38,603 nucleotides of DNA from an uncultured Stigonema sp. Its GTDB lineage: Bacteria > Cyanobacteriota > Cyanobacteriia > Cyanobacteriales > Nostocaceae. The position numbers were made by a program, and so were the translations under genes. The notes beneath the pieces were generated by a model. It worked only from the letters and a program-made list of their open reading frames with translations. It did not search any database and was not told where the DNA came from. Location of the stretch: the NCBI GenBank assembly GCA_964658145.1, contig CAZZYE010000005.1:1-38603 (forward strand). The letters are read 5' to 3'. How positions within the stretch are numbered: the stretch's first letter is position 1; each line of letters starts with the position of its first letter. Positions 771-38,603 of this stretch are shown here, piece after piece.

Positions 771-782
771 GGAAAGAAAACT

Positions 783-1109: not shown

Positions 1110-1192
1110 GATGTGGCTGTTACTCAAGAAACAGACAAATGCTAATCGCTACATTATGCAAATCAGAATGAGTGAAGGAATTGGAGGCAACA

Positions 1193-1405
1193 ATGAATAG
1201 AGATGACAAAGAAGATACGACAATTTATAAAGTTGTAGTGAATCACGAAGAACAGTATTCTATTTGGCCATCTGACCGAGATAACCCACTCGGCTGGCGT
1301 GACGGTGGCAAAACTGGTGTGAAAGAGGAATGTCTGGAATACGTTAAGCAAGTGTGGACTGACATGAGACCGCTGAGTCTTCGTCAGAAGATGGAGAAAT
1401 CCTAG
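1193..1405 (+). CDS. mbtH: MbtH-like NRPS accessory protein (70 aa from ATG 1193)
   Basis: Carries the family signature [52 protein letters not shown], with the invariant Trp residues and the WTDMRP motif. The track ORF opens at GTG 1172, but GGAGG (1183-1187) lies 5 nt before ATG 1193, which gives the usual family length of about 70 aa. Confidence 0.93.
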
Positions 1406-1502
1406 CACGGTTTTGATGGAAAAGTTGCTGGTTGTCGCCAGCAACGTTCCTTATGTAGAGATGATTGACTGCGTCTGGTTTTGATTGCTAAGGGAACAAC
1501 CA

Positions 1503-3230: not shown

Positions 3231-6200
3231 TTAAATGAAAGTCTGGATGTTGTAGGTAGTAGCATCTTAGAAGACTCTTATGTCATAGATAATACAGATG
3301 AACTGATCCGCGAAACTCTTCTGGCAATGGAACCAGAAGACCAAAAGCGGTGGCTTTTGTCTTATGTTCAAGAGCGAGTGGCTCGGGTACTCAAAGTGCC
3401 ACCTTCTCAATTAGACCAACAGCAGCCTCTCAGTACCCTAGGTCTCGATTCTTTGATGGCTGTGGAGCTCAAGAACGAGATCGAAACTAGCTTGGGTGCT
3501 ATTTTGCCCATGACCAGTTTCCTTGAGGGTTCTAGCATTGCCCAGATGGCGATCGAGGTATTCAATCAGTTGACAGCAATTCCCTCTACCTCAGAAATGC
3601 ATCTTGTTCCAATTCAGGAAGCTGATGCTGAATATCCCCTCTCCTATGGTCAAAGGTCTCTGTGGTTTCTGCACCAGTTAGCACCAGAAAGCCCAGCTTA
3701 CAATATTGCAGCGGCTGTACGCCTGAGAGCAGATTTGGATATTCCTGCTCTGCAACGCACGTTTCAGAAACTGGTAGATCGTCATCCTGCCCTCAGGACG
3801 ACTTTCATTGCCCCTGATGGTGAACCTAGACAATGGGTTCATGAGTTCCGGGAGGTATACTTCTACAAGGAGGACGCATCGGCTTGGAGCGACGCATTCC
3901 TAAATAATCGCCTTGTTGAAGATGCTTACCGACCCTTTAATCTGGAGCAAGGTCCTTTACTGCGGGTCAGTTTATTCACTCGTTCAGCAAATGAATATAT
4001 CTTGCTGCTAGTTGTACATCACATTGTCGCTGACTTCTGGTCTTTGTCAGTACTCCTACAGGAGATGGGAAGACTTTATCAGGCAGAAAAAGACGGCACA
4101 ACAGTAGCGCTTGCTCCCTTGGTAATACAATATACCGACTATGCTCGCGCTTCAGCAGAAATGCTGGCAAACGCGGAAGGAGAGCGACTCTGGGCTTATT
4201 GGCAGAAGCAGCTGGCAGGGGAGTTACCAGCGCTGAATCTCCCTACTGACCGACCTCGACCTCCAGTTCAAACCTATCGAGGTGCTTCCCAGCCCTTCAA
4301 GTTAAATGCAGAATTGACTGAGAAGCTCAAAGCACTAAGCCGCGCTCACGGTGCTACTCTTTACATGACTTTGCTTGCTGCTTTTCAGGTACTGCTTTAT
4401 CGCTATACGGGTCAAGAAGACCTATTGGTAGGTTCGCCTACGGCTGGTAGGAGTCGGACTGAGTTGTCAGGATTAGTAGGTTATTTTGTTAACCCTGTAG
4501 TATGCCGTGCAAATTTTTCTGGTAATCCCAGTTTCAAAGCCTTTCTCAATCAAGTACGCTCTTCTGTACTAGATGCTTTTAAACACCAAGACTACCCCTT
4601 TGCCCTTTTGGTTGAGCGATTACAACCAACAAGGGATCTCAGTATATCTCCATTGTTCCAAGTTATGTTCGTCTTGCAGAAAGCGCACTTGCTGCATGAG
4701 GAAGGCTTGACAGCGTTTGCTTTGGGCGAAACGGGAGCACGGATGAATCTGGGGGATCTGGAACTGGAGTCTTTGGGACTGGAACAACGGATAGCTCAGT
4801 TTGATTTGACACTGACGATGGCTGAAGTGGAGTCTGGAATAGCCGCATCGCTTGAGTACAGCACTGACTTGTTTGATGCGAGTACTATAGACCGGATGGT
4901 GGGACATTTACAAACGTTGCTGGAAGAGATTGTCGCTAATCCAGAGCAGCCAGTTTCTAAATTACCCCTGTTGACGGCATCTGAGCAGCATCAGTTGGTG
5001 GAGTGGAATAAGACCCAGACCAATTATCCCCAAGATAAGTGTATCCATCAGTTGTTTGAGTCGCAGGTGGAACGCACTCCCGATACAGTCGCGGTGGTGT
5101 TTGAAAACCAACAACTGACTTATGGGGATCTGAACTCCCGCGCCAATCAACTGGCGCACCATCTGCAAGCCCTGGGAGTAGGACCAGAGGTGTTGGTAGG
5201 TGTTTGTGTTGAGCGCTCCCTAGAGATGGTTTTAGGACTGCTTGGGATTCTCAAGGCAGGTGGGGCTTACGTGCCGTTAGACCCGCAATTACCCAAAGAG
5301 CGCTTGGCTTATATGCTGAATGATTCCCAAGTGTCAGTGATGTTAACTCAAGACAAATGGGTGAGTGGTTTGCCTGAAAATGGGACATGCGTAGTTTTCT
5401 GCTTGGATCAACAATGGGAAACACTTTCTGTTGAGAGTGAGGACAATCTCATCAGTGGTGTGCAAGTCGATCATCTGGCTTATATGATTTACACCTCAGG
5501 CTCCACCGGAAAACCAAAAGGAGCGATGAACACCCACCGTGGAGTTAGCAATCGCTTGCTTTGGATGCAGGATATCTACCGATTAACCGCAGCAGATCGG
5601 GTTTTACAGAAGACTCCTTTGAGTTTCGATGTCTCTGTTTGGGAGTTATTCTGGCCATTGTTGAGTGGAGCGAGCTTAGTTGTGGCGCAACCAGGTGGAC
5701 ATCAAGATAGTGCTTATTTAGTGAAGCTGATGGCCTGTGAGAAAATTACCACAGTTCATTTCGTGCCATCAATGCTTCAGGTTTTCTTGCAAGAACAAGG
5801 ACTGGACAGTTGCAGTGGCTTGCAAAGAGTGTTCTGTAGTGGAGAAGCGTTATCATTTGAACTGCAACAACGCTTTTTTGCTCGTTTAGGGTGTGAATTA
5901 CACAATCTCTACGGTCCGACGGAAGCTGCTATTGATGTCACCTTCTGGCAATGCTTGCAAAACAGCTATCTGACAAAAGTGCCCATTGGTCGTCCCATCG
6001 CCAACACACAAATTTACATTCTTGATCGCCATTTCCAACCGATGCCCATTGGCGTTCCAGGGGAATTGCACATTGGTGGTGTTGGTTTGGCACGAGGCTA
6101 CCTTAACCGCCCTAGCTTAACAAGTGAAAAATTCATCCCCAACCCGTTGAGCGATGAACCAAATGCCCGCCTGTATAAAACTGGTGATCAAGCACGTTAT

Positions 6201-8243
6201 CTAAGCGACGGTAACATCGAGTTTCTTGGTCGCATAGATCATCAAGTGAAAATTCGTGGCTTCCGCATTGAACTTGGAGAAATTGAGGCGGTGCTGAATC
6301 AACACCCACAAGTGCAGGATAACGCAGTCATCACCCGAGAAGATCACCTTGGCAACAAACGCTTAGTGGCTTATATTGTTCCTGTCCAAGAGCCACCTTC
6401 TGTAGCTGAACTGCGAAACTTCCTGAAGCAGAGGGTTCTCGAATACATGGTCCCAAGTGCCTTTGTGATTTTAGAGACGATGCCACTGACGCCGAATGGT
6501 AAGGTAGACCACCGTGCTTTACCAACACCAGATACTTCCCAGCGGAATTTAGATGTTGGTTTTGAGCCACCCTGTACCCCAGTAGAAAAGAGTTTAGCCG
6601 CCATTTGGGCTGAAGTCTTGGGGTTGGAAAAAGTCGGGATTCGCGACAACTTCTTTGAGTTGGGAGGAGATTCCATCCTCAGTATTCAGGTGATTGCCCG
6701 CGCCAATCAAGCGGGTCTAGTGCTCACCCCCAAACAGTTATTTCAGCATCAAACTATTGCCGACTTAGCTACCATCACAGACACAACCCAAGGCGTTCAA
6801 GCTGAACAAGGTATCGTGATCGGTCCAGTACCCCTGACCCCCATCCAGCACTGGTTCAAAGAGCAGAATCTACCCCAGCCGCACCATTATAACCAATCGC
6901 TCCTGCTGGAAGTGCCACCAGATTTGAACCCAGAATTATTAGAGCAAGTCGTGCGGCAATTGTTGCGACATCACGATGCCCTGCGCCTGCGGTTTGTGCA
7001 GTCCGGTGATTACTGGGAGCAAATGAATGCCACCATAGAAGAAACAGTGCCTTTGAGCGTGGTAAATTTGTCACAAATGTCCTCAGACGAGCAGCAAACA
7101 GCTGCCATTGAGGCTGTTGCCAGCGAACTACAAGCCAGTCTTAACCTGTTAACAGGACCAATCATGCGAGTGGCTTTGTTTCAGTTAGGCATAGATCAAC
7201 CAGGGCGTTTGCTAATCATCGTACATCACCTCATGGTGGATGGCGTCTCATGGCGGATTTTGCTGGAGGATCTCGCTAGTGCCTACCAACAGCTGTGCCA
7301 GGGCGAAGCGATTCAACTACCCGCGAAAACAACTTCTTTCCAGCAGTGGGCGCAACGGCTGACGGAGTATGGGCAATCACAAGCCCTAGCTACGGAGTTG
7401 GAGTATTGGCTAGCTCAGTATGAGTCTGGTGTTACTTGTTTGCCAGTGGATTATCCCATAGATCAACAAGTCAACACTGTTGCTTCGGCTGCAATTGTGT
7501 CAGTGTCTCTGAGTGTGGAACAAACCTGCGCCTTACTACAAGAAGTGCCTTCTGCCTACAATACCCAAATTAACGATGTGCTGCTGACTGCTTTAGTGCA
7601 GAGCTTACAAGCGTGGACTGGAGAGCGCTGCTCAGTGCTCATTGACCTTGAAGGTCATGGACGAGAGGAATTATTTAAAGATGTCGATCTGTCGCGCACA
7701 GTGGGCTGGTTCACCACTATCTTTCCCGTGCGGTTAGAGCTAAGGGAGCTTAACCATCCAGGATCGGCTTTGAAGTCGGTGAAAGAACAATTGCGTCGCT
7801 TGCCAAATCGCGGTATCGGCTACGGTATTTTGCGGTATTTGAGTCAAGACGCTACAACGCGCTCAAAACTACAGTCTCTTCCCGAAGCACAAGTAAGTTT
7901 TAACTACCTTGGTCAGTTGAAATGGGTGGATTCAAAATCTTTTGTGCTAGGGTCTGCAAAAGAGTCCTGCGGACCAGCTCATAATCAGCTGGGAAATCGT
8001 CGCCATCTGCTGGAAGTGAACGGATTTGTAGCTTCAGGCAAGCTACAACTGGATTGGACTTACAGCGAGAAGGTTCATCAACGAACCACTGTTGAGCGTC
8101 TGGCTCAGGGTTTTATCCAGGCTTTACAAGTTCTTATTTCCCACTGCCAGTCCTCTGATGTTGGAGGCTATACCCCTTCAGATTTCCCGCTTGCAAGGCT
8201 AAATGAGGAAAAACTTAATAAACTGTTCACTATGCTCGATTAA
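1503..8243 (+). CDS. NRPS 1: FAAL-ACP-C-A(Ser)-T-E (lipoinitiation plus D-Ser module)
   Basis: The track frame opens at TTG 1485; the first ATG is 1503 (MTAYLNDL). FAAL motifs: YTSGSTGKPKGVMVSHGNILHN and WLPLFHDMGLIG. ACP: LGLDSLMAVE (Ser codon 3450-3452). C: HHIVADFWS (about 4015). A: YTSGSTGKPKG, hand-extracted code DVWHFSLIDK, which reads as Ser (compare EntF DVWHFSLVDK). T: GGDSILSIQ (Ser codon 6672-6674), the form typical of T domains that feed E domains. E: HHLMVDGVSW and EGHGRE. The tail TPSDFPLARLNEEKLNKLFTMLD is COM-donor-like. Confidence 0.97.
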   Translation: MTAYLNDLPNTIYNLSTLVELLRYRGQYQPDQIAYTFLQDGETESSRLTYGELDQQARAIAASLQSIGTSGDRALLLYPPSLEFISAFFGCLYAGIVAVPAYPPRRNQNSSRLEAIVADAQATFALTTTSELANLESRLALNPELAGLRWLATDKIDSDLGSHWREPTLSRETLAFLQYTSGSTGKPKGVMVSHGNILHNERLIKMAFGHTEKTIFVGWLPLFHDMGLIGNVLQPLYLGIPSFLMSPVAFLQQPVRWLQAISRYKATTSGGPNFAYDLCVSKITPEQISSLDLRSWEVAFNGSEPIRAETLQRFARKFADCGFRWEAFYPCYGMAETTLFVSGGLKTAPPVLYQLEGAALEENRVLLSTLDQVDSRTIVGCGLTFFDKIAIVDPESKTQCLSDKVGEIWVSGSSVAQGYWNRPEVTEQTFNAFIAETSASTPGASGPFLRTGDLGFFHNGELFVTGRLKDMIIIRGRNHYPQDIELTLEKSHPALRLACSAAFGVEVNGEERLVIACEVERSYLRQLDVDEVVRAIRSAISEQHEIQAYGVLLLKTASIPKTSNGKIQRHACRVGFLNESLDVVGSSILEDSYVIDNTDELIRETLLAMEPEDQKRWLLSYVQERVARVLKVPPSQLDQQQPLSTLGLDSLMAVELKNEIETSLGAILPMTSFLEGSSIAQMAIEVFNQLTAIPSTSEMHLVPIQEADAEYPLSYGQRSLWFLHQLAPESPAYNIAAAVRLRADLDIPALQRTFQKLVDRHPALRTTFIAPDGEPRQWVHEFREVYFYKEDASAWSDAFLNNRLVEDAYRPFNLEQGPLLRVSLFTRSANEYILLLVVHHIVADFWSLSVLLQEMGRLYQAEKDGTTVALAPLVIQYTDYARASAEMLANAEGERLWAYWQKQLAGELPALNLPTDRPRPPVQTYRGASQPFKLNAELTEKLKALSRAHGATLYMTLLAAFQVLLYRYTGQEDLLVGSPTAGRSRTELSGLVGYFVNPVVCRANFSGNPSFKAFLNQVRSSVLDAFKHQDYPFALLVERLQPTRDLSISPLFQVMFVLQKAHLLHEEGLTAFALGETGARMNLGDLELESLGLEQRIAQFDLTLTMAEVESGIAASLEYSTDLFDASTIDRMVGHLQTLLEEIVANPEQPVSKLPLLTASEQHQLVEWNKTQTNYPQDKCIHQLFESQVERTPDTVAVVFENQQLTYGDLNSRANQLAHHLQALGVGPEVLVGVCVERSLEMVLGLLGILKAGGAYVPLDPQLPKERLAYMLNDSQVSVMLTQDKWVSGLPENGTCVVFCLDQQWETLSVESEDNLISGVQVDHLAYMIYTSGSTGKPKGAMNTHRGVSNRLLWMQDIYRLTAADRVLQKTPLSFDVSVWELFWPLLSGASLVVAQPGGHQDSAYLVKLMACEKITTVHFVPSMLQVFLQEQGLDSCSGLQRVFCSGEALSFELQQRFFARLGCELHNLYGPTEAAIDVTFWQCLQNSYLTKVPIGRPIANTQIYILDRHFQPMPIGVPGELHIGGVGLARGYLNRPSLTSEKFIPNPLSDEPNARLYKTGDQARYLSDGNIEFLGRIDHQVKIRGFRIELGEIEAVLNQHPQVQDNAVITREDHLGNKRLVAYIVPVQEPPSVAELRNFLKQRVLEYMVPSAFVILETMPLTPNGKVDHRALPTPDTSQRNLDVGFEPPCTPVEKSLAAIWAEVLGLEKVGIRDNFFELGGDSILSIQVIARANQAGLVLTPKQLFQHQTIADLATITDTTQGVQAEQGIVIGPVPLTPIQHWFKEQNLPQPHHYNQSLLLEVPPDLNPELLEQVVRQLLRHHDALRLRFVQSGDYWEQMNATIEETVPLSVVNLSQMSSDEQQTAAIEAVASELQASLNLLTGPIMRVALFQLGIDQPGRLLIIVHHLMVDGVSWRILLEDLASAYQQLCQGEAIQLPAKTTSFQQWAQRLTEYGQSQALATELEYWLAQYESGVTCLPVDYPIDQQVNTVASAAIVSVSLSVEQTCALLQEVPSAYNTQINDVLLTALVQSLQAWTGERCSVLIDLEGHGREELFKDVDLSRTVGWFTTIFPVRLELRELNHPGSALKSVKEQLRRLPNRGIGYGILRYLSQDATTRSKLQSLPEAQVSFNYLGQLKWVDSKSFVLGSAKESCGPAHNQLGNRRHLLEVNGFVASGKLQLDWTYSEKVHQRTTVERLAQGFIQALQVLISHCQSSDVGGYTPSDFPLARLNEEKLNKLFTMLD

Positions 8244-8279
8244 GTTGATTCAACATCCACATTCTTGGAGAAATTTAAT

Positions 8280-27130: not shown

Positions 27131-27190
27131 TCTGCCCAATGGGTGATTAATAAACCGAGGCTTTAGCAGAATCATCAAGTGAGGTTTTTA

Positions 27191-30100
27191 ATGAAAAAGC
27201 ATATTTCCAAAGATTCTCTAACAATTAACGAGAATAACTTTGACGCCACCGAAGATGATGTCTTTGTATTCCCTGCATCTTTTGCCCAACAACGCTTGTG
27301 GTTTCTCGAACAACTGGAGGGGGGTAGTGCCACTTACAATATACCTGTGGCTTTAAGCCTGACTGGGTCGCTCCACGTCACTGCTTTAGAGCAAGCTGTA
27401 GCAGAAATTGTACAGCGTCATGAAGCTTTGCGGACTACTTTCTTGATGGTAGATGGGACTCCAGTTCAAATGATTGCACCCACCCTAACCATCACCGTAC
27501 CATTGACAGATTTGCAGTCGCTGCCAAAGAGCAAACAGTCCGATGAAGTGCAACGTTTAGCTACAGAAGAAGCACAGCGCCCTTTTGACCTAGTAAAAGG
27601 ACCCTTACTGCGCCTTACTCTCCTGCGATTGGGGCAAGAATCCCACGTGTTGTTGATCACAATGCACCACATCATCTCTGATGGTTGGTCAATTGGGATA
27701 CTCATTCAAGAGTTGTCTGTGCTTTATCAAGCCTTCTCTCAAGGAAACCCTTCCCCTTTATCAGAGTTGCCCATTCAGTATGCCGACTTTGCCCACTGGC
27801 AGCGACAGTGGCTGAGTGGGGAGGTACTGCAAGCACTACTCAACTACTGGCAGCAACAGTTAGCAAGTGCTCCACCTTTGTTGGAATTGCCCACCGACCG
27901 TCCGCGCCCACCAGTACAAACTTTTACTGGGAGTACCGAGCGCTTTCACCTCGATCAGAACTTAACACAAAAGCTACAAGTTCTCAGTCAAAAATTTGGG
28001 GTTTCCATATTTATGACCTTGCTAGCAGCTTTTGTGACTTTACTTGGACGCTACAGCGGTCAGGAGGATATTGTTGTTGGTTCACCAATTGCGAACCGAA
28101 ATCGCAGGGAGACTGAATTACTCATTGGTTTTTTTGTCAATACTCTAGTTTTGCGTACTAGCCTGCAGGGGAATCCCACATTTCAACAACTGCTTAATCG
28201 AATCAAGCAGGTGTCCCTAGATGCTTATGCTCACCAGGATTTGCCCTTTGAGCAATTAGTTGAAGCTTTACAGCCTCAACGCAATCTCAGCCACAATCCA
28301 CTGTTTCAGGCGATGTTTGTTTTGCAGAATGCACCAATGGGGATACTAGAACTGCCCGGTTTGAAGCTAACGCCATTAGAACTAGAGAACGTCACATCTA
28401 AGTTCGATTTAACCCTGTCAATGGAAGAGACTGAACAAGGCTTGGTTGGGTCTTGGGAATACAACAGTGACCTATTCGACGCTACCACGATACAGCGGAT
28501 GAGCCGACATTTCCCGACAATGCTTGAGGGGATTGTCGCCAATCCAGAGCAAAGACTTTCACAACTCCCCCTGCTCAGTGCAGATGAGCGACACCAGTTA
28601 CTACTTGAGTGGAACGACACCCAAGCAGACTATCCCCAAGATAAGTGTATTCATGAGCTATTTGAGTCGCAGGTGGAACGCACTCCAGATGCAGTCGCAG
28701 TGGTATTTGAAGACCAACAACTGACTTACGGTGAGTTGAATGCTAGAGCTAACCAACTGGCACACTATCTTTTGAGTTTGGGTGTAAAACCAGATCTACT
28801 GGTTGGTATTTGTGTAGAACGCTCCGTAGAAATGGTGGTAGGACTATTAGGAATACTCAAGGCAGGTGGAGCTTACGTGCCAGTAGACCCTGCCTATCCT
28901 CAAGAGCGCTTGAGCTACATATTGAATGATTCGCAAATACCAGTGCTATTGACACAGCAGACGTTGGTAGACAGGCTAAGTGAGCATCAAGTGCATGTAG
29001 TCTGCTTGGATACAGACTGGGGGATAATTGCACAAAAGAGTGGGGAGAATCCCGCCAGTGGTGTGCAAGTTAGTAACTTGGCTTATGTGATCTACACCTC
29101 AGGTTCTACAGGTCAGCCCAAAGGAGTTGAGGTGACCCACAAATCTGCAACCAACTTCTTAAATTTGATGCAGCAACGACCAGGACTCCTCCAGTCTGAT
29201 ATTTTCCTAGCAGTCACAACAATATCTTTTGATATTGCAGTCCTGGAAATTTACTTACCACTGATGGTAGGAGCCAAGGTGGTTCTGGTGAGCCGGGAAG
29301 TAGCAACTGATGGTAAACGGTTGAATCAGCTGCTAGTGAGTTCTGGTGCATCTGTGATGCAAGCAACACCAGCAACTTGGCATCTACTGCTAGCATCTGG
29401 GTGGGAGAGTGGCAAGAATTTCAAAGTTCTGTGTGGTGGTGAAGCTTTAACAACTGAACTGGCAAATGAACTTCTCAACAGAAGCACGTCTTTATGGAAT
29501 TTGTATGGTCCGACTGAAACCACCGTTTGGTCATCTATTTATCAAGTCGAAGCGTCCCAATCCCGATGTGGTGCCAAAGACACCCTAGTACCTATCGGTA
29601 CTCCCATCGCTAATACCCAAATCTATATCCTCGACCGCCATCTCCAACCAGTTCCTATGGGCGTTGCAGGAGAACTTCACATTGGTGGTACTGGACTTGC
29701 TCGCGGCTATCTCAATCTTCCAGGTTTGACCAGCGAGAAATTCATTCCTAATCCCTTTACTAATGAGCCAGAAGCCCGCCTCTACAAAACTGGTGATTTA
29801 GTACGTTATTTGCCAAACGGTGTTATACAGTACCTCGGACGCATCGATCATCAAGTCAAGATTCGCGGCTTCCGCATCGAACTCGGAGAAATAGAGGCTC
29901 TACTCAGCCAACACCCAGATGTGCTGCAAACAGTCGTGATTGCCCGAGAAGATGTTCCAGGCGATAAACGCTTAGTTGCTTACTTAGTCCCAGACCAAGA
30001 GCAAACACCAACAGTCAGTGACCTACATCAGTTTCTCAAGGAAAAACTGCCAGAGTACATGATACCTTCAGCATTTGTGCTGCTGGAGTCCTTTCCACTA

Positions 30101-31240
30101 ACACCTAACGGCAAGGTGGATCGTCGGGCGCTTCTCGCACCAGATATTAAACTTAATCTGGAAGCAAGTTTTCTCCCACCCCGCAACCTGCTAGAACTGC
30201 AAATGACTCACATCTGGGAAACTCTTCTAGGTGCTCACCCCATTGGAGTCCAAGACAACTTTTTTGACCTCGGTGGTCATTCCCTTTTAGCTCTTCGCTT
30301 GATGGCTCAGATTCAACAGCAGTTCGGGAAAAGTTTGCCTCTAGCCACACTTTTCCAAGGTGCAACTATTGAGTATCTGACAAGTATTCTCCAAAAGCAT
30401 TCAGATCCTCAACCCTCGTCTCCCTTAGTAGCACTTCAACCTAGTGGTAACCTGCCACCTTTCTTCTGCATCCACCCAGTTGGTGGTAACGTCTTTTGCT
30501 ATACACATTTAGCTCGTCATCTTGGCTTTGAACAACCATTTTACAGCTTGCAATCACCAGGTCTTAATGGAGAACGAGAACCCCATACATGCATTGAAGA
30601 TATGGCTGCCCACTATATTGAAGCACTACAAACTATTCAGCCCCAAGGTCCTTACCACCTTGGAGGTTGGTCGAATGGTGGTGTTGTTGCTTTTGAAATG
30701 GCGCAGCAGTTGCACGCTTGTGGGCATGAAGTTGCACTGCTAGCTTTAATAGATAGCTATGCACCTACTGCCATTGATATCACTGAAGAAATCGATGAGG
30801 CAATCTTAATCACCTCAATTGCTAGTGACTTAGGCGGTCTTTTCGGTAAGGAGTTGGTTATATCAGTCGATGAACTACAGAACCTCGAAACGGAAGAGCA
30901 ATTGAACCATATTTTAGAGCAAGCAAAAATGGTCAATATCTTGCCTCCAGAAGTTGGGCAAAAGCAGATGCGCCATCTGTTGCAAGTTTACAAAGCTAAC
31001 ATCCAAGCTATGTCTCACTATACACCCCAGCCTTACTCAGGTCCAGTGACTCTCTTCTATGCTAGCGAGCAAGTTACGGAAGTAACCGAAGAACAAATTA
31101 TCGGCTGGGGTAAGGTAGCTGTTGGCAGTATAGAAACCCACAACATTCCTGGCAACCATTACACCATTCTCCGCAAACCCCATGTTCATATTCTAGCTGA
31201 ACAGCTAAAAACTTACTTCCAGCAAACAGGGGATAAATAA
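27191..31240 (+). CDS. NRPS 5: C-A(Gly)-T-TE (termination module)
   Basis: The track frame opens at GTG 27179. GAGG (27181-27184) lies 6 nt before ATG 27191. C: HHIISDGW. A: [11 protein letters not shown], code DILQLGLVWK, which reads as Gly. T: [11 protein letters not shown]: GWSNGG (Ser codon 30671-30673), with IPGNHYTIL near the C-terminus. Confidence 0.97.
30430..31237 (+). other. type I thioesterase (release) domain
   Basis: [15 protein letters not shown] (oxyanion region), the GxSxG nucleophile GGWSNGG, and the C-terminal GNH motif. Confidence 0.85.
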
Positions 31241-31241
31241 G

Positions 31242-32567
31242 ATGGCAAAACGCCCTGTGGCTACTAAAATGTGGGCTTTCATTCTTATATGGTTCGGACA
31301 ACTTGTCTCCCTCTGTGGGTCTGCCCTCACTGGCTTTGCCTTGGGTGTCTGGGTTTACCAGCGCACAGGGTCAGTCACCCAATTCGCTCTCATTTCTCTG
31401 TTTGCTCAGTTACCAATGATTGTAATTTCCCCTGTCGCTGGTGTCTTTGTAGACCGATGGAACCGACGTTGGGCGATGATTCTTAGTGACTCTGGGGCTG
31501 GGCTGGGTACTTTAGCGATCGCCCTCCTCTTTGCCACTGGTCGCCTGGAAATCTGGCACATTTACCTACTGACCGCCGTCATCTCTGCGTTCAATGCCTT
31601 CCAGTGGCCAGCTTATAGCGCTGCTACCACTCTGTTAGTGCCTAAACAGCACCTAACTCGCGCTAGTGGTATGACTCAGCTAGGAGAAGCGATCGCTCAA
31701 CTCATCTCACCTATACTGGGAGGTTTGTTAGTAGTCACCATCCAGCTACAGGGCGTGATCCTGCTTGACTTCGCCACCTTCCTCTTCTCCGTGGGCACCC
31801 TGCTTTTAGTTCGGTTCCCTGAAGCCAAAACCACTACCGCAGGAATTGCAAAGAAAACTGCGTTGTTGCAAGACGCTGCTTATGGCTGGACCTACATCAT
31901 CGCCCGACCAGGATTGCTAGGACTGCTCATTTTCTTTGCTGCTAACAACTTCCTTGTAGGAGTTGTTACCGTACTATTCACACCCTTAGTGCTATCCTTT
32001 ACCTCAGCAACCGTCCTTGGCACCATCCTGTCCCTCGCAGGTCTGGGGCTGTTGGTAGGCAGTTTGGCAATAAGTACTTGGGGAGGACCGCAGCGACTGA
32101 TCTACAGTTTGTTAGGCTTTGAGTTGTTGGGTGGACTGTGCATCTTGGTTGCTGGGTTACGCACCTCCGTCCCACTTCTTGCCCTCACAGCTTTCCTGTT
32201 CTTTTTTGGCACAGCAATCATCAATAGTTGCAGTCAAACCATTTGGCAAAGAAAAGTTGCACTTGAGGTGCAGGGAAGAGTCTTTGCCATCAGACGAATG
32301 ATTGCCTGGTCATCCCAACCACTAGCGTATCTCATCGCGGGACCGTTAACTGACTGCGTGTTTGAGCCATTAATGGCACCCAAAGGTCCCTTAGCCAGCA
32401 GCATCGGACAAATCATCGGCGTTGGACCTGGTCGCGGCATTGGCTTACTGTTCATCCTCATGGGATCGCTCACCATGCTCACAACCATTGCTGCCTATCA
32501 GTATCCCCGGTTGCGGCTAGTTGAAAATGAATTACCAGATGCCATTGCTGATGAAGCTTCTGGTTAG
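31242..32567 (+). CDS. MFS transporter (EntS / 'transmembrane secretion effector'-like), putative product exporter
   Basis: ATG lies 1 nt after the NRPS 5 stop. The protein is hydrophobic throughout, with about 12 predicted TM segments. The motif GVFVDRWNRRWAMILSD is typical of MFS loop 2-3 (D-R-x-x-R-R). This family commonly sits in siderophore and NRPS clusters. Confidence 0.85.
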   Translation: MAKRPVATKMWAFILIWFGQLVSLCGSALTGFALGVWVYQRTGSVTQFALISLFAQLPMIVISPVAGVFVDRWNRRWAMILSDSGAGLGTLAIALLFATGRLEIWHIYLLTAVISAFNAFQWPAYSAATTLLVPKQHLTRASGMTQLGEAIAQLISPILGGLLVVTIQLQGVILLDFATFLFSVGTLLLVRFPEAKTTTAGIAKKTALLQDAAYGWTYIIARPGLLGLLIFFAANNFLVGVVTVLFTPLVLSFTSATVLGTILSLAGLGLLVGSLAISTWGGPQRLIYSLLGFELLGGLCILVAGLRTSVPLLALTAFLFFFGTAIINSCSQTIWQRKVALEVQGRVFAIRRMIAWSSQPLAYLIAGPLTDCVFEPLMAPKGPLASSIGQIIGVGPGRGIGLLFILMGSLTMLTTIAAYQYPRLRLVENELPDAIADEASG

Positions 32568-32678
32568 TGGTTAAGAGCAATTAACAATCAATTAATTACT
32601 AACTAGTAGCAGTTTTCATCAGAAATATTGCACTTTAAACGTACATCAAGTCAATTATACAAGAAAGTTGAAAAAACT

Positions 32679-33746
32679 ATGACACATCAATTGATGGATA
32701 TAACTTCAATCACCGATGGGATTTTAGGAACAATCGGTAATACACCATTGGTCAAATTGAACCGAGTTTTCAAAGATGCTCATTTTCAGCTTTTTGCGAA
32801 GTTGGAAATGTTTAATCCAGGAGGTAGTATCAAAGACCGTCCAGCCTTAAACATGCTAAAACATTTGTTTCTACAAGGAGATATTGGACCCGGAACTACA
32901 ATTATTGAATCCAGCTCGGGAAATTTAGGTATCGGTCTAGCGCAAGCATGTACTGTTCTTGGGTTGCATTTTATATGTGTAGTCGATCCCAAAACAACCC
33001 AACAAAATATTAACATCCTCAAAGCTTATGGAGCAGAGGTTGTTCTCGTGAGCAAACCCGACCCCATCACAGGGGATTTTTTGCCAGCTCGCATTAACCG
33101 AGTGAAATCATTGCTCGCTTCCATTCACAATAGTTTTTGGTGTAACCAGTATGCCAACTTGAATAATGCACATGCCCATCATCAGACGATGAACGAGATT
33201 GTTACGACCCTCAATGGAAAAGTTGACTACTTATTCTGCGCCACTGGTAGCTGTGGCACGCTCCGAGGCTGCGCTGAATATGTCAGAAGTCACAATCTCA
33301 ACACAAAAATTATCGCTGTAGATGCTAAAGGGAGTGTCATTTTTGGTGGTAAAAGAGGCAAACGTCTCATCCCTGGGCATGGTGCGGCGCGAGTCCCAGA
33401 GTTGTTACAGCCCGGACTAAAGGATGAACATATATATGTATCTGATTGGAATTGTGTTGTTGGTTGTCGTCATTTGCTAAGTCGGGAGGCAATATTGGCT
33501 GGAGGCTCTTCAGGGGGAGTTATAACGGCGATTGCGAAAAAAGGACATGAAATACCTAATGGTGCAATTTGTGTTGCCATTCTCTGCGATCGCGGTGAGC
33601 GCTACCTTGACACAATCTATTCAGACACTTGGGTCGAGGAACACTTCGGTAGCGTTGAATTGAACATTACACAATTACAGAATGATTTGGTAGTTCAGCT
33701 TCCTAACTCTTGTTCCAAATCATTACACCCTTATGCAAGCGTTTAA
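32679..33746 (+). CDS. sbnA: PLP-dependent cysteine-synthase-fold enzyme, SbnA-like (first step of L-2,3-diaminopropionate synthesis)
   Basis: IGNTPLVKL...KLEMFNPGGSIKDRPA (PLP lysine)...ESSSGNLG...GTGSCGT resembles Staphylococcus SbnA (VGQTPMVQL...KLEYMNPGGSMKDRPA, recalled). It is paired with an SbnB-like gene. The track frame opens at TTG 32628; the first ATG is 32679. Confidence 0.8.
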   Translation: MTHQLMDITSITDGILGTIGNTPLVKLNRVFKDAHFQLFAKLEMFNPGGSIKDRPALNMLKHLFLQGDIGPGTTIIESSSGNLGIGLAQACTVLGLHFICVVDPKTTQQNINILKAYGAEVVLVSKPDPITGDFLPARINRVKSLLASIHNSFWCNQYANLNNAHAHHQTMNEIVTTLNGKVDYLFCATGSCGTLRGCAEYVRSHNLNTKIIAVDAKGSVIFGGKRGKRLIPGHGAARVPELLQPGLKDEHIYVSDWNCVVGCRHLLSREAILAGGSSGGVITAIAKKGHEIPNGAICVAILCDRGERYLDTIYSDTWVEEHFGSVELNITQLQNDLVVQLPNSCSKSLHPYASV

Positions 33747-33782
33747 CAAAAAATTAAAGTTTTTCAACCAAAAGGATTTACT

Positions 33783-34814
33783 ATGAATCGCGATGACATA
33801 CTTTTCTTAAAAGGTGATGAGATTCTTGCGCTGTTCAAAAAATGTGAACAGGAAATACTGCAGACTGTAAAGTTAACTTATCAAATCCATGCTCAAGGTG
33901 ATAGCAGCCAACCTCATTCTAGCTTTTTGCGTTTTCCAAATAATGACAAAAATAGAATTATTGCGTTACCAGCTTACTTGGGTGGTGAGTTGAATACAGC
34001 AGGTATCAAATGGATTGCTTCTTTTCCAGATAATTTAGTTATGGGTATGGAGCGAGCCTCGGCTGTTTTAATCCTAAATTCAACACAAACGGGTCGCCCA
34101 CAAGCTATTATGGAAGCTTCTGCAATCAGTGCAAAACGCACTGCCGCTAGTGCTGCTCTCGCTGCGCATTACTTGCGAGGCGAGCAATTATTAGCTACAG
34201 TTGGAATAATTGGCTGTGGTTTGATAAATTTTGAAACCGTTCGCTTTCTCTTAGCCACTCACCCTGAAATAGAAACCTTGTTCATTTATGACTTAAGTAG
34301 GGAAAGAGCAGAACAATTCAATCGTAAATGCAAACAAATATCCACTCAATTAAAAGTGGTAATTTTGTCAGAAGCAAATGCTATTTTCCAACAGGCTTCT
34401 GTAATTTCCTTGGCGACAACCGCAAGCAAGCCACACATATTCGATATTTCCAAATGTCTTCCTGGTAGTATTATTTTGCATACTTCTCTACGAGACTTAT
34501 CACCGGAAATAATCTTATCATCTGATAACATTGTCGATGACATAGATCATGTCTGCCGTGCTCAAACATCTATTCATCTTGCGGAACAACTAACTGGTGA
34601 CAGAGATTTTATTAGAGCTACTCTTGGTGATGTGCTCAATGGCATTGCCCTAGGACAACAAGACAACAGTAAAATTACCATCTTCAGTCCTTTTGGGCTT
34701 GGCATACTCGACATCGCACTAGGGCAGTTAGCCTACAAATTAGCTATTGAGCAAAACCAAGGAACCACAATCCAATCATTCTTGCCGACTTCTTGGTTAC
34801 AACGCGAAGAATAA
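33783..34814 (+). CDS. sbnB: ornithine cyclodeaminase/mu-crystallin-family NAD-dependent enzyme, SbnB-like (second step of L-Dap synthesis)
   Basis: RIIALPAYLGGE...AGIKWIASFPDN...MERASAVLILN...AIMEASAISAKRTAA...GIIGCGLINFE closely parallels recalled SbnB (RIIAMPSHIGGE...SGIKWIGSKHDN...MERASGVIILN...AVMEASLISSMRTAA...TIIGCGLIGDK). AAAGGA RBS precedes ATG 33783. Confidence 0.82.
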   Translation: MNRDDILFLKGDEILALFKKCEQEILQTVKLTYQIHAQGDSSQPHSSFLRFPNNDKNRIIALPAYLGGELNTAGIKWIASFPDNLVMGMERASAVLILNSTQTGRPQAIMEASAISAKRTAASAALAAHYLRGEQLLATVGIIGCGLINFETVRFLLATHPEIETLFIYDLSRERAEQFNRKCKQISTQLKVVILSEANAIFQQASVISLATTASKPHIFDISKCLPGSIILHTSLRDLSPEIILSSDNIVDDIDHVCRAQTSIHLAEQLTGDRDFIRATLGDVLNGIALGQQDNSKITIFSPFGLGILDIALGQLAYKLAIEQNQGTTIQSFLPTSWLQREE

Positions 34815-34872
34815 TAAACGAAGTCAGAAGCATGTACGTCTAAGCAATTCAAAATTCAAAGTATCAAAGATA

Positions 34873-37056
34873 ATGTTTACCTTTCTAACACATTGGTTTC
34901 ATCTTAGACGCCGAAAACATTCTCCTTCTTTGAAGGATTTACCAAAGGAGAGTAAGCGCTATCCACTTAGGGTTTTCAAAGGAAAATTATTTCCCTGTTT
35001 ACTATTAACTCTCACTCTCATCCTGACTTTACTGGTAGGAAACTATAATCCTACCTTCGGGTCAAGAACAACTGAAATACTCTGGGACACTTATGGCGTT
35101 CCTCATATTTACGGCAAGGATGCACAAAGCGCCTTCCACGCCTTTGGTTGGGCGCAAATGCAAAGCCACGGCAACCTGATTTTACGCCTCTACGGTCAGG
35201 CACGCGGACGAGCCGCCGAATATTGGGGGAAGAAGTACTTAGAATCAGATCAATGGGTAAGAACAATGGGTGTCCCGGCTCGTGCCCAGTCTTGGTACAA
35301 TTCACAAAATCCGAATTTTCGCAAGTATCTTGATGCTTTTGCCGCTGGAATCAATGACTATGCCCAAGCACATGCCGATCTGATTGACGACCAAGTAGAA
35401 GTTGTACTGCCCATCAATGGGGTAGACTTGCTAGCTCATGTTCAGCGCGTACTCAACTTCACTTTTGTAGTCGATCCACAAAGTGTCGCAGGTGTAAGTG
35501 ATAAAGCTCCCTCAGTAGGTTCTAACGGCTGGGCGATCGCCCCTGCACATTCTGGTAGTGGTAACGCGATGCTGCTGGCAAACCCACATCTCCCTTGGTC
35601 AGATTTATTCCTCTGGTATGAAACCCATCTGACCGCCCCTGGTATTAATACTTACGGTGCAGCACTTGTTGGTATCCCCGTCCTGGCAATTGCCTTCAAC
35701 AACAATTTGGGCTGGACCCACACAGTGAATACACACCATGGGTGGAATGCTTACAAGCTAACACTGGCTGACGGAGGCTACCGCTTTGATGGCAAGGTTA
35801 AAGCCTTTGAGACAGAAGAACAAACCCTGAAGGTAAAGCAAGATGACGGCACACTGCGCTCAGAAAAACTTGTCGTCAAGCGCTCAATACACGGTCCTGT
35901 GGTTAGAGAAAAAGATGGCAAAGCTGTTGCACTCCGCGTTGTCGGACTTGATCGCCCTGGTGTACTAGAGCAGTGGTGGGATATGGGGCGTGCCACAAAT
36001 CTCACCGAGTTTGAAACTGCACTTAAGCGCTTGCAGTTGCCCATGTTTACGGTCATGTACGCAGATCGAGAAGGGCACATCATGCACCTGTTCAACGGTG
36101 TTGTTCCAGTTCACTCCCAAGGCGATTTTAAATACTGGTCAGGCATTGTTCCTGGAGATACTTCTACCACTTTATGGACCAAAACTCACCCTTACCGCGA
36201 CCTACCCCGCGTGGTCGATCCACCAAGCGGCTGGTTACAAAATGCCAACGATCCGCCTTGGACAACAACATTTCCACAGGTGCTTAACCCAGATAAATAT
36301 CCACCCTACATGGCTCCACGTGGTCCTATGTCCTTCCGAGCACAGCGTTCAGCCCATATGCTGGCTGAAGATAAAAAAATCTCTTTCCAAAAAATGATTC
36401 AATACAAGCACTCAACACGCATGGAACTAGCCGATCGCCTACTCGACGATCTAATTCCAGCTGCGCGGCAACTAGGTAATTCTAAAGTGCGTCAGGCTGC
36501 TGATGTACTGCAAGCCTGGGATAGTCAAGCCGATGCAAATAGCCGTGGTGCCGTACTCTTTTCCTTCTGGGTAAAACAAATGGGCTTCCCCAAATCATTT
36601 GCCATTCCTTGGAACGAGAAATCTCCACTCACCACACCTGATGGCTTAGCCGATCCAAAGAACGCAGTAGCAGCCCTCGATGTTGCTGCAACCAAAGTAG
36701 AAAAAGCTTATGGTGCGCTTGATGTGCCGTGGGGAGAAGTCTTCCGGTTGCGCTATAATAAAATGGATCTACCCGCTAATGGGGGCGATGGAAGTCTCGG
36801 CATCTTCCGGGTTATCGATTTTGCCCCGACTTCAGATGGACGATTTGCCCCTGTGGAAGGCGATAGCTACGTCGCAGCAATTGAATTCTCCAACCCAGTA
36901 AAAGCTATGGTACTCACCAGCTACGGCAACGCCACTCAGCCCGGTTCGCCGCACACAGGTGACCAGTTGAAGTTATTCGCTCGTAAGGAGTTGCGACCTG
37001 CTTGGCGAACCCGCCAGGAAATACAAGCCAACTTGACTAAGCGCGAAGTCTTGTAG
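34873..37056 (+). CDS. Ntn-hydrolase acylase of the penicillin-amidase / PvdQ / AHL-acylase family, with N-terminal membrane anchor or signal
   Basis: The track frame opens at TTG 34747, inside sbnB; the first ATG is 34873. Hydrophobic segment: LFPCLLLTLTLILTLLVG. The autoprocessing site and nucleophile are at ...APSVG|SNGWAIAP (Ser codon 35521-35523), followed by MLLANPHLPW and the FNNNLGWTHTVN motifs of the family. Confidence 0.9.
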   Translation: MFTFLTHWFHLRRRKHSPSLKDLPKESKRYPLRVFKGKLFPCLLLTLTLILTLLVGNYNPTFGSRTTEILWDTYGVPHIYGKDAQSAFHAFGWAQMQSHGNLILRLYGQARGRAAEYWGKKYLESDQWVRTMGVPARAQSWYNSQNPNFRKYLDAFAAGINDYAQAHADLIDDQVEVVLPINGVDLLAHVQRVLNFTFVVDPQSVAGVSDKAPSVGSNGWAIAPAHSGSGNAMLLANPHLPWSDLFLWYETHLTAPGINTYGAALVGIPVLAIAFNNNLGWTHTVNTHHGWNAYKLTLADGGYRFDGKVKAFETEEQTLKVKQDDGTLRSEKLVVKRSIHGPVVREKDGKAVALRVVGLDRPGVLEQWWDMGRATNLTEFETALKRLQLPMFTVMYADREGHIMHLFNGVVPVHSQGDFKYWSGIVPGDTSTTLWTKTHPYRDLPRVVDPPSGWLQNANDPPWTTTFPQVLNPDKYPPYMAPRGPMSFRAQRSAHMLAEDKKISFQKMIQYKHSTRMELADRLLDDLIPAARQLGNSKVRQAADVLQAWDSQADANSRGAVLFSFWVKQMGFPKSFAIPWNEKSPLTTPDGLADPKNAVAALDVAATKVEKAYGALDVPWGEVFRLRYNKMDLPANGGDGSLGIFRVIDFAPTSDGRFAPVEGDSYVAAIEFSNPVKAMVLTSYGNATQPGSPHTGDQLKLFARKELRPAWRTRQEIQANLTKREVL

Positions 37057-37109
37057 CTAAGCGGTTGTTAAGAAATAACTTCACACTTTTAAGTTAGGAT
37101 AATCATAGT

Positions 37110-37208
37110 ATGCCAGAGGCAGGAGAGTTAGTGAACGAGAAGTACGGTATGTTCACAGTCGAACCAGTGACCGATGATTACGGTCGCACCAACTTGACCA
37201 ACGGCTAG
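37110..37208 (+). CDS. candidate small ORF (32 codons), unknown function
   Basis: Read by hand: ATG 37110 to TAG 37206-37208. Translation: MPEAGELVNEKYGMFTVEPVTDDYGRTNLTNG. A -10-like GATAAT (37098-37103) sits just upstream, and the strong hairpin starts 27 nt downstream. I recognise no family. Confidence 0.2.
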   Translation: MPEAGELVNEKYGMFTVEPVTDDYGRTNLTNG

Positions 37209-37234
37209 CGCACAAAATATTGAAATTTGAAACA

Positions 37235-37259
37235 GTAGGGTGGGCACTGCCCACCCTAC
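37235..37259. terminator. GC-rich perfect hairpin between convergent genes (probable purB terminator)
   Basis: GTAGGGTGGGCA-c-TGCCCACCCTAC has 12-nt perfectly complementary arms. On the minus strand it lies 49 nt after the purB stop and is followed by T-rich sequence (tgtttcaaatttcaatatttt). On the + strand no U-run follows. Confidence 0.6.
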
Positions 37260-37307
37260 ATGAGATTCGCGCCTCAGTATCCGTTTCTCAACCCAGTCTG
37301 CGCAATC

Positions 37308-38603
37308 TCATATACCCAACCTTTGGTAAACCTCTTCTAAATGTCTTAATTGGTGCTGCGGGTCAAAACACGCCTCAATTTCTGCTGGTGACAACTTTTG
37401 GGTAACACGAGGGTCTTTGCTAATCAAGTCGTGGAAATTGCCGTCTGGCTTATTCCAAGCAGCATGAGCACATGATTGTACAATTGCATAAGCCTCCTCG
37501 CGGTTCATTCCCTTTTCTACCAAAGCAAGTAGTACTCTCTGGCTAAACACGACGCCGCCATAGCAATTCATATTCCGCTTCATGTTTTCTGGATAGACCA
37601 GCAGGTTTTTCACCAAATTGGTCATCTCAATTAACATAAAGTGCGTTAAAATGCAAGCATCTGGGAAAATTACCCGTTCTACTGAACTGTGGGAAATATC
37701 CCGTTCGTGCCACAATGCAACATCTTCCAAAGCTGCAATGGCATGACTCCGAATAATTCGCGCCATTCCTGTGAGCCGTTCTGAACGGATAGGGTTACGC
37801 TTGTGGGGCATTGCTGAGGAACCTTTTTGCCCTTTAGCAAAGAATTCTTCAACTTCCAGAACGTCTGTTCTTTGCAAATTGCGAATTTCTACAGCAAAAC
37901 GTTCAATTGATGCCGCCAGTAAGGCTAATTGTTGCACATAATCGGCATGGCGATCGCGTGAAATGACTTGTGTTGATGCAGTATCGGGTTTGAGTCCGAG
38001 TCTTTGGCAAGCGATCGCTTCCACACGCGGTTCAACATTGGCATAAGTCCCTACCGCACCAGAAATCTTACCAACTGCGATTGTTTCCCGGAGATTTGTC
38101 AAGCGTTCTTGATGTCGCAATACTTCTGCCAACCATCCAGCTAGCTTAAAACCAAAGGTAATAGGTTCAGCGTGAATTCCGTGGGAACGTCCAACCATCA
38201 CCGTGTAGCGATGTTCCTTTGCTTTTTCGCGAATGGCTTGAATCAAATCGAATAGGCGTTGCCGTAATAAATCAAGACTAGCAACCAGTTGCAGTGCTAA
38301 AGCCGTATCCAACACGTCTGAACTGGTTAAACCTAAGTGAATGTAGCGTCCTGCATCACCTACATACTCGTTGACATTTGTCAAGAAGGCAATGACATCG
38401 TGGTGGACTTCAGCTTCAATTTCCAACACCCGCTTCGGGTCAAAATTTGCCTTGGCATTAATTTCCTCAACCGCCTCAACAGGAATATAACCTAACTCAG
38501 CCTGAGCCTCACAGACAGCGATTTCAACTGACAACCAGGTTTTTAGCTTATAAGCTTCCGTCCACAGATTGCCCATTTCAGGCAAGGTATAACGCTCAAT
38601 CAC
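37308..38603 (-). CDS. purB: adenylosuccinate lyase
   Basis: The 431-aa product MIERYTLPEMGNLWTEAYKLKTWLSVEIAVCEAQAELGYIP... aligns from the first residue with bacterial PurB (B. subtilis MIERYSRPEM...). It carries the fumarate-lyase signature SSAMPHKRNP. The GTG start is the last codon of the window, so the gene appears complete. Confidence 0.95.
   Translation of the reverse strand: MIERYTLPEMGNLWTEAYKLKTWLSVEIAVCEAQAELGYIPVEAVEEINAKANFDPKRVLEIEAEVHHDVIAFLTNVNEYVGDAGRYIHLGLTSSDVLDTALALQLVASLDLLRQRLFDLIQAIREKAKEHRYTVMVGRSHGIHAEPITFGFKLAGWLAEVLRHQERLTNLRETIAVGKISGAVGTYANVEPRVEAIACQRLGLKPDTASTQVISRDRHADYVQQLALLAASIERFAVEIRNLQRTDVLEVEEFFAKGQKGSSAMPHKRNPIRSERLTGMARIIRSHAIAALEDVALWHERDISHSSVERVIFPDACILTHFMLIEMTNLVKNLLVYPENMKRNMNCYGGVVFSQRVLLALVEKGMNREEAYAIVQSCAHAAWNKPDGNFHDLISKDPRVTQKLSPAEIEACFDPQHQLRHLEEVYQRLGI

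Follow-up and report, generated by a model that had tools for sequence, protein, structure and literature searches.

The acylase gene and its product

The window analysed here, a 38,603-bp stretch covering positions 1 to 38,603 of contig CAZZYE010000005.1 from an uncultured Stigonema sp., carries a biosynthetic gene cluster on its + strand between 783 and 37056. The series comprises up108, an MbtH-like gene, five nonribosomal peptide synthetase (NRPS) genes, a major facilitator superfamily (MFS) transporter gene, sbnA, sbnB and, in last place, a gene for an N-terminal nucleophile (Ntn) hydrolase acylase; neighbours among these eleven genes are -4 to 345 bp apart, and sbnB and the acylase gene 58 bp. 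We argue below that this acylase, which resembles the cyanobacterial enzyme CcsQ, probably carries out the last, extracytoplasmic step of the NRPS pathway, in which it would remove a transient lipid tail.

The acylase gene (34873-37056, + strand) is intact from its ATG at 34873 to its stop at 37056 and encodes 727 amino acids (aa); a longer reading frame from a TTG at 34747 overlaps the 3′ end of sbnB, and 34873 is the first ATG. Pfam, PDB and orthologue matches identify the product as a CcsQ-like Ntn hydrolase of the penicillin-amidase family. Residues 67-719 match positions 2-675 of the 675-position Pfam profile Penicil_amidase (PF01804) with 457 bits and an E value of 1.7e-136, where the curated cut-off is 21.3 bits, and the match is therefore far beyond chance. 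The initial annotation had described an Ntn acylase with a Gly/Ser-Asn nucleophile encoded at 35521-35523, and this description is borne out by the full-length PF01804 match, by the codons GGT TCT AAC at 35518-35526 (+ strand), which specify Gly216/Ser217-Asn218, where autoproteolysis is predicted to expose the nucleophile at the N-terminus of the beta chain, and by alignment. Ser217, codon 35521-35523, aligns with Ser1-beta in the beta chains of both PvdQ and glutaryl-7-aminocephalosporanic acid (glutaryl-7-ACA or GL-7-ACA) acylase, and the Ser217 and Asn218 positions are invariant across 81 sequences, the window acylase and 80 cyanobacterial orthologues. Alignment with glutaryl-7-ACA acylase further shows that Ser1-beta, Asn2-beta, His23-beta, Val70-beta and Asn244-beta are kept and that Glu455-beta corresponds to an Asp. 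The catalytic set of the window acylase is accordingly numbered S217, H239, V285 and N459, and self-cleavage into alpha and beta chains is predicted at Gly216/Ser217. An AlphaFold2 model from a 26-sequence orthologue alignment reached a mean predicted local distance difference test score (pLDDT) of 47.6 and a predicted template modelling score (pTM) of 0.39, too poor for use.

The N-terminus (34873-35040, + strand) has a basic n-region and a hydrophobic core and is putatively a signal peptide of the Sec type or a signal anchor, as the initial annotation had supposed. Strong hydrophobicity is confined to one segment of the protein, residues ~39-55 (LFPCLLLTLTLILTLLVG), which lies behind a long basic n-region; the Kyte-Doolittle maximum is 2.6, at residues 42-56. 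The hydrophobic segment is conserved in an alignment of 25 orthologues, several of which also have the long 'MF..L..W..LR' n-region. These features suggest that the acylase is exported and acts outside the cytoplasm. We considered Tat export on account of an RRR in the n-region and rejected it, as the twin-Arg lies ~25 residues from the hydrophobic core.

Comparison with characterised enzymes places the acylase nearer to the cephalosporin acylases than to PvdQ. Glutaryl-7-ACA acylases head the PDB search with 699 bits (E 6e-209) and 47% identity over 673 residues, against 205 bits for PvdQ, and the NCBIfam PvdQ equivalog NF051460 scores 255.4 bits, below its cut-off of 950. Given this score and the PDB ranking, the enzyme is a homologue of PvdQ and not a PvdQ. 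The closest solved relatives are the class I glutaryl-7-ACA acylases (PDB 1FM2, 1KEH, 3S8R), with which the window acylase has the alpha/spacer/beta organisation in common. The initial annotation had called the enzyme PvdQ-like. [quoted passage not shown] In pyoverdine biosynthesis in Pseudomonas, too, a FAAL-type start of PvdL attaches an acyl chain to the first residue, and this chain is taken off in the periplasm by PvdQ, an Ntn acylase from the same Pfam family. In contrast to that system, however, the window acylase is no orthologue of PvdQ and the window has no pyoverdine chromophore chemistry: no pyoverdine-type genes were found in its Pfam/NCBIfam annotation.

The substrate pocket departs from that of the glutaryl-7-ACA acylases. 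We aligned the window acylase and its 80 cyanobacterial orthologues with a glutaryl-7-ACA acylase sequence and found Tyr149-alpha replaced by Phe, Tyr33-beta by Trp and Gln50-beta by Leu in all 81 cyanobacterial sequences, and Arg57-beta by Ala in the window acylase and in 72 of the 81 overall. In the crystal-structure papers of 2000-2002, Arg57-beta, Tyr33-beta and Tyr149-alpha are reported to be the residues that bind the glutaryl carboxylate. On that basis, whereas the proteobacterial glutaryl-7-ACA acylases have a polar glutaryl pocket, the window acylase has hydrophobic residues at the carboxylate-binding positions, and a pocket that lacks the carboxylate clamp and is lined by hydrophobic side chains would fit a fatty-acyl substrate better than glutaryl.

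Linkage of the acylase to NRPS and siderophore-transport genes

A search with SbnB identified a metagenome contig from JGI (L086) in which the end of an NRPS gene, an MFS gene, sbnA, sbnB and the acylase gene follow one another in the same order as in the window. By blastn, window positions 31235-37065 align with 1296-7172 of this contig at 88.1% identity over 5877 nucleotides (nt), and the two MFS proteins are 89% identical. The similarity extends from the start of the MFS gene to position 37065, 9 nt past the acylase stop. Because it ends there, we conclude that the acylase gene is part of the cluster and not of the purB flank; downstream of the acylase gene, the place held by purB in the window is occupied in the contig by a transposase fragment together with a gene for a lanthipeptide synthetase.

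The other end of the cluster is matched by L085, another contig of that metagenome, with 91.6% nt identity over up108-MbtH-FAAL and 84% over a VOC-FkbH-peptidyl carrier protein (PCP) segment. Together the two contigs share with the window three blocks of 84-92% nt identity, at 713-3278, 9642-12819 and 31235-37065. Between the blocks, the first module, built of condensation (C), adenylation (A) and PCP domains with or without an epimerisation (E) domain, and the last NRPS module are far more diverged (56% aa, ~66% nt). The first C-A-PCP module of L085 is 56% identical to its window counterpart at the aa level, has the A-domain code DVRHFAFL-K and lacks an E motif. This pattern suggests that modules have been replaced by recombination. 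The acylase gene travels with the FAAL, FkbH, MFS and SbnAB blocks through such module swaps, without the chromosomal flank; L085 and L086 may come from separate genomes. At ~5780-5830 of L085 a stop splits the first A domain within a motif, which reflects either an assembly error (a frameshift or deletion) or a pseudogene.

The wider family shows the same company. More than 4600 relatives of the acylase were retrieved at E <1e-50, and the best 120 are all cyanobacterial, with 66-87% identity; the best named one, at 86%, is from Dulcicalothrix desertica PCC 7102. From species-representative genomes we took 80 loci of orthologues, each with 10 kb of flanking sequence, clustered the flanking open reading frames (ORFs) and annotated recurrent families with Pfam. 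NRPS, MbtH or siderophore-transport genes lie within 10 kb of the acylase gene in 66 of these 80 loci, a raw count in which flanks of this length under-count large NRPS clusters. Genes for a TonB-dependent receptor (TBDT), FecCD/FecE, a periplasmic binding protein (PBP) or ExbB/ExbD/TonB are present in 43 loci, NRPS genes in 28, MbtH in 22 and a FAAL, 55-58% identical to that of the window, in nine. Two layouts illustrate the range: in one (L014) the order is TonB-ExbB-ExbD-acylase-type II thioesterase-PepSY-TBDT-FAAL/NRPS, and in another (L055) it is NRPS-TBDT-PBP-MFS-acylase-FecCD-FecCD-FecE. A purB neighbour of the acylase gene occurs in none of the 80 other loci. The initial annotation had set store by whether the acylase gene is conserved with NRPS genes in related genomes; the L086 block and the 66 orthologue loci show that it is.

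Paralogous acylase pairs occur in D. desertica PCC 7102 (L003 and L038) and, on a single contig, in Scytonema hyalinum (L007 and L024). Both D. desertica genes adjoin NRPS genes; in S. hyalinum L007 does so, and the flank of L024 is without marker genes. The D. desertica copy nearest to the window acylase, the one at 86% identity, sits beside OCP/FRP genes, insertion sequence (IS) elements, an NRPS gene and an amidinotransferase-like ORF.

The FAAL-initiated assembly line

The first NRPS gene (NRPS1, 1485-8243, + strand) encodes a lipo-initiation module of the form FAAL-acyl carrier protein (ACP)-C-A-PCP-E, delimited with Pfam domains and the NCBIfam fatty-acid-AMP ligase models. In NCBIfam the FAAL is matched best by the N-terminal part of PRK05691, an NRPS model of 4334 positions and presumably of the PvdL type. 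The A domain bears the code DVWHFSLIDK, presumably a Ser-type code in the light of published codes, and is followed by the E-type motif HHLMVDGVSW at residue 1914, so that NRPS1 would make N-acyl-D-Ser. An MFS transporter of the EntS/MFS_3 type (31242-32567, + strand; Pfam MFS_1 and MFS_3, NCBIfam EntS-like match), a putative exporter into the periplasm, is encoded directly after the last NRPS gene. The FAAL-ACP-C start, the Ser-type A domain with its E domain and the MFS exporter on which the initial annotation had built are thus all recovered, through the NCBIfam FAAL models, the code, the E motif and the gene at 31242-32567.

NRPS2 (8265-12227, + strand) has the architecture C-VOC (glyoxalase-like)-FkbH-PCP and no A domain, according to matches to Pfam Glyoxalase_4, NCBIfam FkbH and PDB 3slr. 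Its FkbH domain scores 292 bits against TIGR01686, whose cut-off is 147, and the protein probably loads a glycerate-derived unit. Among the best 120 matches of a 5.8-billion-protein search with whole NRPS2, a search dominated by matches to the C domain, one other protein has this architecture, P0124 of L085 (61% identity). As a speculation, the VOC domain might act on the glyceryl thioester, for instance as an epimerase like methylmalonyl-CoA epimerase.

NRPS3 (12224-20041, + strand) reads docking-C-A(DIWELTA..)-PCP-C-A(interrupted)-PCP by its Pfam/NCBIfam domains and A-domain codes. Its second A domain has the Gly-like partial code ..MGMIWK and is interrupted, in the middle of the assembly line, by a luciferase-like monooxygenase of the MupA/Atu3671 family (~17771-18763; TIGR04020, 524 bits); similar monooxygenase domains in terminal modules make alpha-hydroxyglycine, which leads to release of an amide. 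Elsewhere in the cluster the intergenic spaces are short, and the 345-bp gap that follows (20042-20386) could hold an internal promoter. NRPS4 (20387-27058, + strand) comprises C-A(DIWELTA..)-PCP-C-A(DAFWLGGCCK)-PCP by the same kinds of evidence (Pfam, A-domain codes), and the code DIWELTA.., shared by one A domain of NRPS3 and one of NRPS4, is like those for 2,4-diaminobutyrate (Dab) or 2,3-diaminopropionate (Dap). The release module, NRPS5 (27179-31240, + strand), is C-A(DILALGLVWK)-PCP-thioesterase (TE), again from Pfam and the A-domain code. After the MFS gene come sbnA (32628-33746) and sbnB (33783-34814), together at 32628-34814 on the + strand, whose products exceed the cut-offs of their NCBIfam equivalogs (SbnA 443 against 350, SbnB 421 against 327) and therefore supply L-2,3-diaminopropionate. 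Four further cyanobacterial sbnAB loci (L087-L090) adjoin NRPS/PKS genes, with no acylase gene within 10 kb.

At the head of the series, up108 (783-1109, + strand) encodes 108 aa with a weak match to Pfam CBF_beta, and the MbtH-like gene (1172-1405, + strand) encodes 77 aa, below the 100-aa limit of the ORF list; its family representative matches Pfam MbtH. Homologues of up108, 74-91% identical, lie beside MbtH near the acylase gene in L021, L032, L060, L067 and L078, and another heads L085. The pair is often joined in acylase loci by a further uncharacterised protein of 110 aa. We also considered whether the cluster had been inserted between up108 and a pre-existing acylase gene, and ruled this out, as up108-MbtH itself belongs to such NRPS loci.

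Between the convergent acylase and purB genes lies a perfect 12-bp inverted repeat (37235-37259), GTAGGGTGGGCA / TGCCCACCCTAC, with 1 nt between its arms, which is likely a bidirectional terminator. It has no T-run and was hence not called by the terminator scan. Over 31000-38000, the promoter and terminator scan gave the same counts as shuffled sequence, and it found no terminator-like site on the + strand between sbnB and the acylase gene, a weak negative.

Proposed removal of a transient lipid tail and its alternatives

The closest precedent comes from the cyanochelin C cluster of Myxacorys, in which a FAAL is fused to an NRPS although the siderophore as detected bears no acyl group (bioRxiv 10.64898/2026.07.24.740629; version dated 2026-09-16). 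Phylogeny and AlphaFold3 docking of myristate led to the proposal that CcsQ, the adjacent Ntn acylase, is the deacylase; it is closest to GL-7-ACA acylases and farther from PvdQ, MhtA/B, BntA and AiiC (bioRxiv 10.64898/2026.07.24.740629). In the same study, a cyanobacteria-specific acylase lineage ('cyanobacteriota 1') is associated with cyanochelin-like clusters in ~47% of cases, a sister lineage shows 8% association with NRPS genes, and 22 of 31 cyanochelin-like clusters have an acylase (bioRxiv 10.64898/2026.07.24.740629). The window acylase resembles CcsQ in being cyanobacterial, in its predicted signal sequence, in having GL-7-ACA acylases as its nearest characterised relatives, in its place at the edge of a FAAL-NRPS cluster and in belonging to a family often found beside siderophore transporters. 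The active-site residues of CcsQ (MBW4537642.1), numbered without the signal, are S161, H183, V229 and N403 (bioRxiv 10.64898/2026.07.24.740629), and their spacings of +22, +68 and +242 are identical to those of S217, H239, V285 and N459 in the window acylase. The enzyme would be a further member of the recently described CcsQ-type family, with a maturation logic already known in siderophores.

The two systems also differ. In the cyanochelin C cluster, ccsQ lies upstream of the NRPS genes, is transcribed divergently from them and adjoins a transporter cassette; the window acylase gene is the last of a same-strand series and follows sbnAB, and its contig has no such cassette. Beta-hydroxyaspartate chelators are what cyanochelin clusters make; the window cluster lacks this chemistry and encodes FkbH/VOC, a supply of Dap and an A domain that a monooxygenase interrupts. 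Acylation falls on L-Val in cyanochelin C and on a predicted D-Ser here. No mention of Dulcicalothrix, SbnA or Dap was found in the supplements of the CcsQ preprint (bioRxiv 10.64898/2026.07.24.740629).

Several Ntn acylases are already established as enzymes that delipidate precursors of siderophores or antibiotics: PvdQ, those of the marinobactins, PdnM and Tem25. MhtA/MhtB and BntA (marinobactins), PdnM (pandorachelin) and Tem25 (telomycin precursor) cut an N-terminal fatty acyl group from the finished nonribosomal peptide outside the cytoplasm, PdnM and Tem25 doing so on cryptic lipidated precursors. These enzymes belong in published trees to a different clade from the window acylase, the PvdQ/lipopeptide-acylase group; PdnM has an extra HemS-like domain, and deacylation of marinobactins is optional.

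On this background we propose the following course for the window pathway. The FAAL-ACP-C start would N-acylate Ser, which the E domain would convert to D-Ser; extension would then add a unit derived from glycerate, two residues of the Dap/Dab type and others that are Gly- and Val-like, and the TE domain would release the chain. The EntS-like MFS transporter would carry the lipopeptide across the plasma membrane. There the acylase, exported by way of its N-terminal signal and self-cleaved at Gly216/Ser217, would use Ser217 to hydrolyse the fatty acyl-D-Ser amide, which would set the peptide free from its fatty acid. By analogy with pyoverdine (PvdL/PvdQ) and cyanochelin C (CcsQ), the lipid would be a transient handle for assembly and export, and the product is probably a metallophore. 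The intact gene, its catalytic residues and hydrophobic pocket signature, the export-like N-terminus, the conservation with the cluster and the siderophore context of the family are seen in the sequences themselves; substrate, compartment, obligatory deacylation and product function are what we infer.

That the lipid tail may be transient was already suggested in the initial annotation, and from the conservation of the acylase gene in L086, the 66 orthologue loci, the pocket substitutions and the CcsQ precedent we infer that this reading is the best supported. The same annotation had also invoked the prodrug and self-protection logic of acyl-D-Asn motifs; these depend on a different peptidase class, the genomic context points to maturation of the siderophore type, and nothing supports self-protection, so we do not retain that part.

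Several observations weigh against a dedicated maturase of a siderophore-type product. The 38.6-kb window, within a 38.7-kb contig, has no TonB-dependent receptor and no Fec-type importer, and profile scans of the window found no canonical chelator genes (TauD/beta-hydroxyaspartate, hydroxamate, catechol), nor does the window contain an Asp-type A-domain code; it is thus from the orthologues that the siderophore label is taken. Scanning for Fur boxes with the 19-mer of E. coli and a model of three NATWAT repeats gave nothing convincing, the best site scoring 14/19 and the hits lying inside genes or at gene starts. The likeness to CcsQ is one of description and of catalytic-residue spacing. The closest relatives of the acylase outside L086 (L003 at 86%, L083 at 84% and L084 at 78%) all sit in other contexts. 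In L084 (a Logan contig, 3512-8522) the acylase gene shares the strand of FecCD-FecCD-FecE and lies 35 bp behind them, ExbB/ExbD are found upstream, and this import-operon context suggests roles for the acylase on the uptake side. Lastly, DLFNNALTYK, a code for Cys, is found in the first A domain of two acylase-linked FAAL clusters (L005 and L063). Heterocyclisation of this Cys, known from cyanochelins A and B, would leave these clusters with no cleavable acyl amide, and in that case such FAAL-Cys starts would argue against a simple picture of one cluster and one maturase. Downstream of the acylase gene, L084 also carries polyamine genes of the carboxynorspermidine type.

Some of these points feed a different account, in which the lipopeptide is the functional end product, membrane-tethered or amphiphilic, and its tail is cut conditionally or on the uptake side, tuning diffusibility, serving re-uptake of the metal complex or acting on foreign acylated siderophores, much as with MhtA/BntA or the PdnM switch of Pandoraea. 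We consider this possible though rather unlikely. Transport genes are commoner than NRPS genes within 10 kb of the orthologues (43 against 28 of 80), the immediate neighbours of the acylase gene vary widely among loci, the acylase gene stands behind ExbB-ExbD in L014 and L027 as it stands behind FecCD-FecCD-FecE in L084, and optional deacylation (marinobactins) and a functional switch (pandorachelin) are both published. Yet in the window and in L086 the acylase gene is attached to a biosynthetic and export block and not to importers, the 10-kb flanks under-count large NRPS clusters, and cyanochelin C occurs essentially only in deacylated form (bioRxiv 10.64898/2026.07.24.740629). It is improbable that the enzyme is instead a quorum-quenching acyl-homoserine lactone (AHL) acylase, or a general acylase, unrelated to the NRPS product and brought to the cluster edge by synteny or a recombination hot spot. 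JGI labels many of the orthologues acyl-homoserine-lactone acylase, in 14 of the 80 loci the 10-kb flanks contain neither siderophore nor NRPS genes, and Ntn acylases with hydrophobic pockets, PvdQ among them, commonly cleave long-chain AHLs (bioRxiv 10.64898/2026.07.24.740629); AiiC and QuiP, AHL acylases of the same Pfam family, probably have a like preference for hydrophobic acyl groups. However, the block shared with L086 at 88% nt identity includes the acylase gene and stops 9 nt after it, purB is a neighbour in none of the 80 loci, of which 66 are siderophore or NRPS loci, and AiiC belongs to the PvdQ/AHL lineage, not the GL-7-ACA-like lineage of CcsQ, and adjoins no biosynthetic cluster (bioRxiv 10.64898/2026.07.24.740629), whereas the family of the window acylase is embedded in clusters. 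The initial annotation had offered as its alternative an AHL acylase that merely adjoins the cluster; the conservation data speak against the adjoining, though the enzyme may still cleave AHLs. Less probable still is a true glutaryl- or cephalosporin-type acylase that removes a short polar dicarboxylic cap (glutaryl or succinyl, for instance): glutaryl-7-ACA acylases lead the PDB matches by a wide margin (699 bits, 47% identity), but the reported carboxylate binders, Arg57-beta, Tyr33-beta and Tyr149-alpha, are Ala, Trp and Phe, Gln50-beta is Leu, and the cluster starts with a FAAL and not with activation of a dicarboxylate.

Should a CcsQ-type acylase strip the tail, genome-based predictions for this and many similar cyanobacterial FAAL-NRPS clusters aim at the wrong mass and polarity, and the actual end product would be hydrophilic, a peptide found in the medium in place of a lipopeptide bound to the cells. 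The window offers a test of the reach of CcsQ-type maturation, as its acylase is conserved together with chemistry other than that of the cyanochelins (Dap, a glycerate unit, no beta-hydroxyaspartate). What novelty remains lies in the partner cluster, an unusual orphan. With known chelator pathways missing from it, and with its combination of an N-acyl-D-Ser start, a C-VOC-FkbH-PCP module, two Dap/Dab-type residues and a Gly module interrupted by a monooxygenase, its product may be no siderophore, or a metallophore of a new chemical type, and cryptic lipidation with periplasmic delipidation would then be a general pro-lipopeptide strategy of cyanobacteria that extends beyond beta-hydroxyaspartate siderophores, a broader proposal that we regard as doubtful and advance tentatively; on that reading, the D-Ser amine, once freed, might set off the activation of a Dap-rich peptide with an ester bond, or its rearrangement. 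Of some interest for enzyme engineering, the clade-wide replacements of the glutaryl-binding residues suggest positions that may turn the cephalosporin-acylase scaffold into a fatty-acyl amidase.

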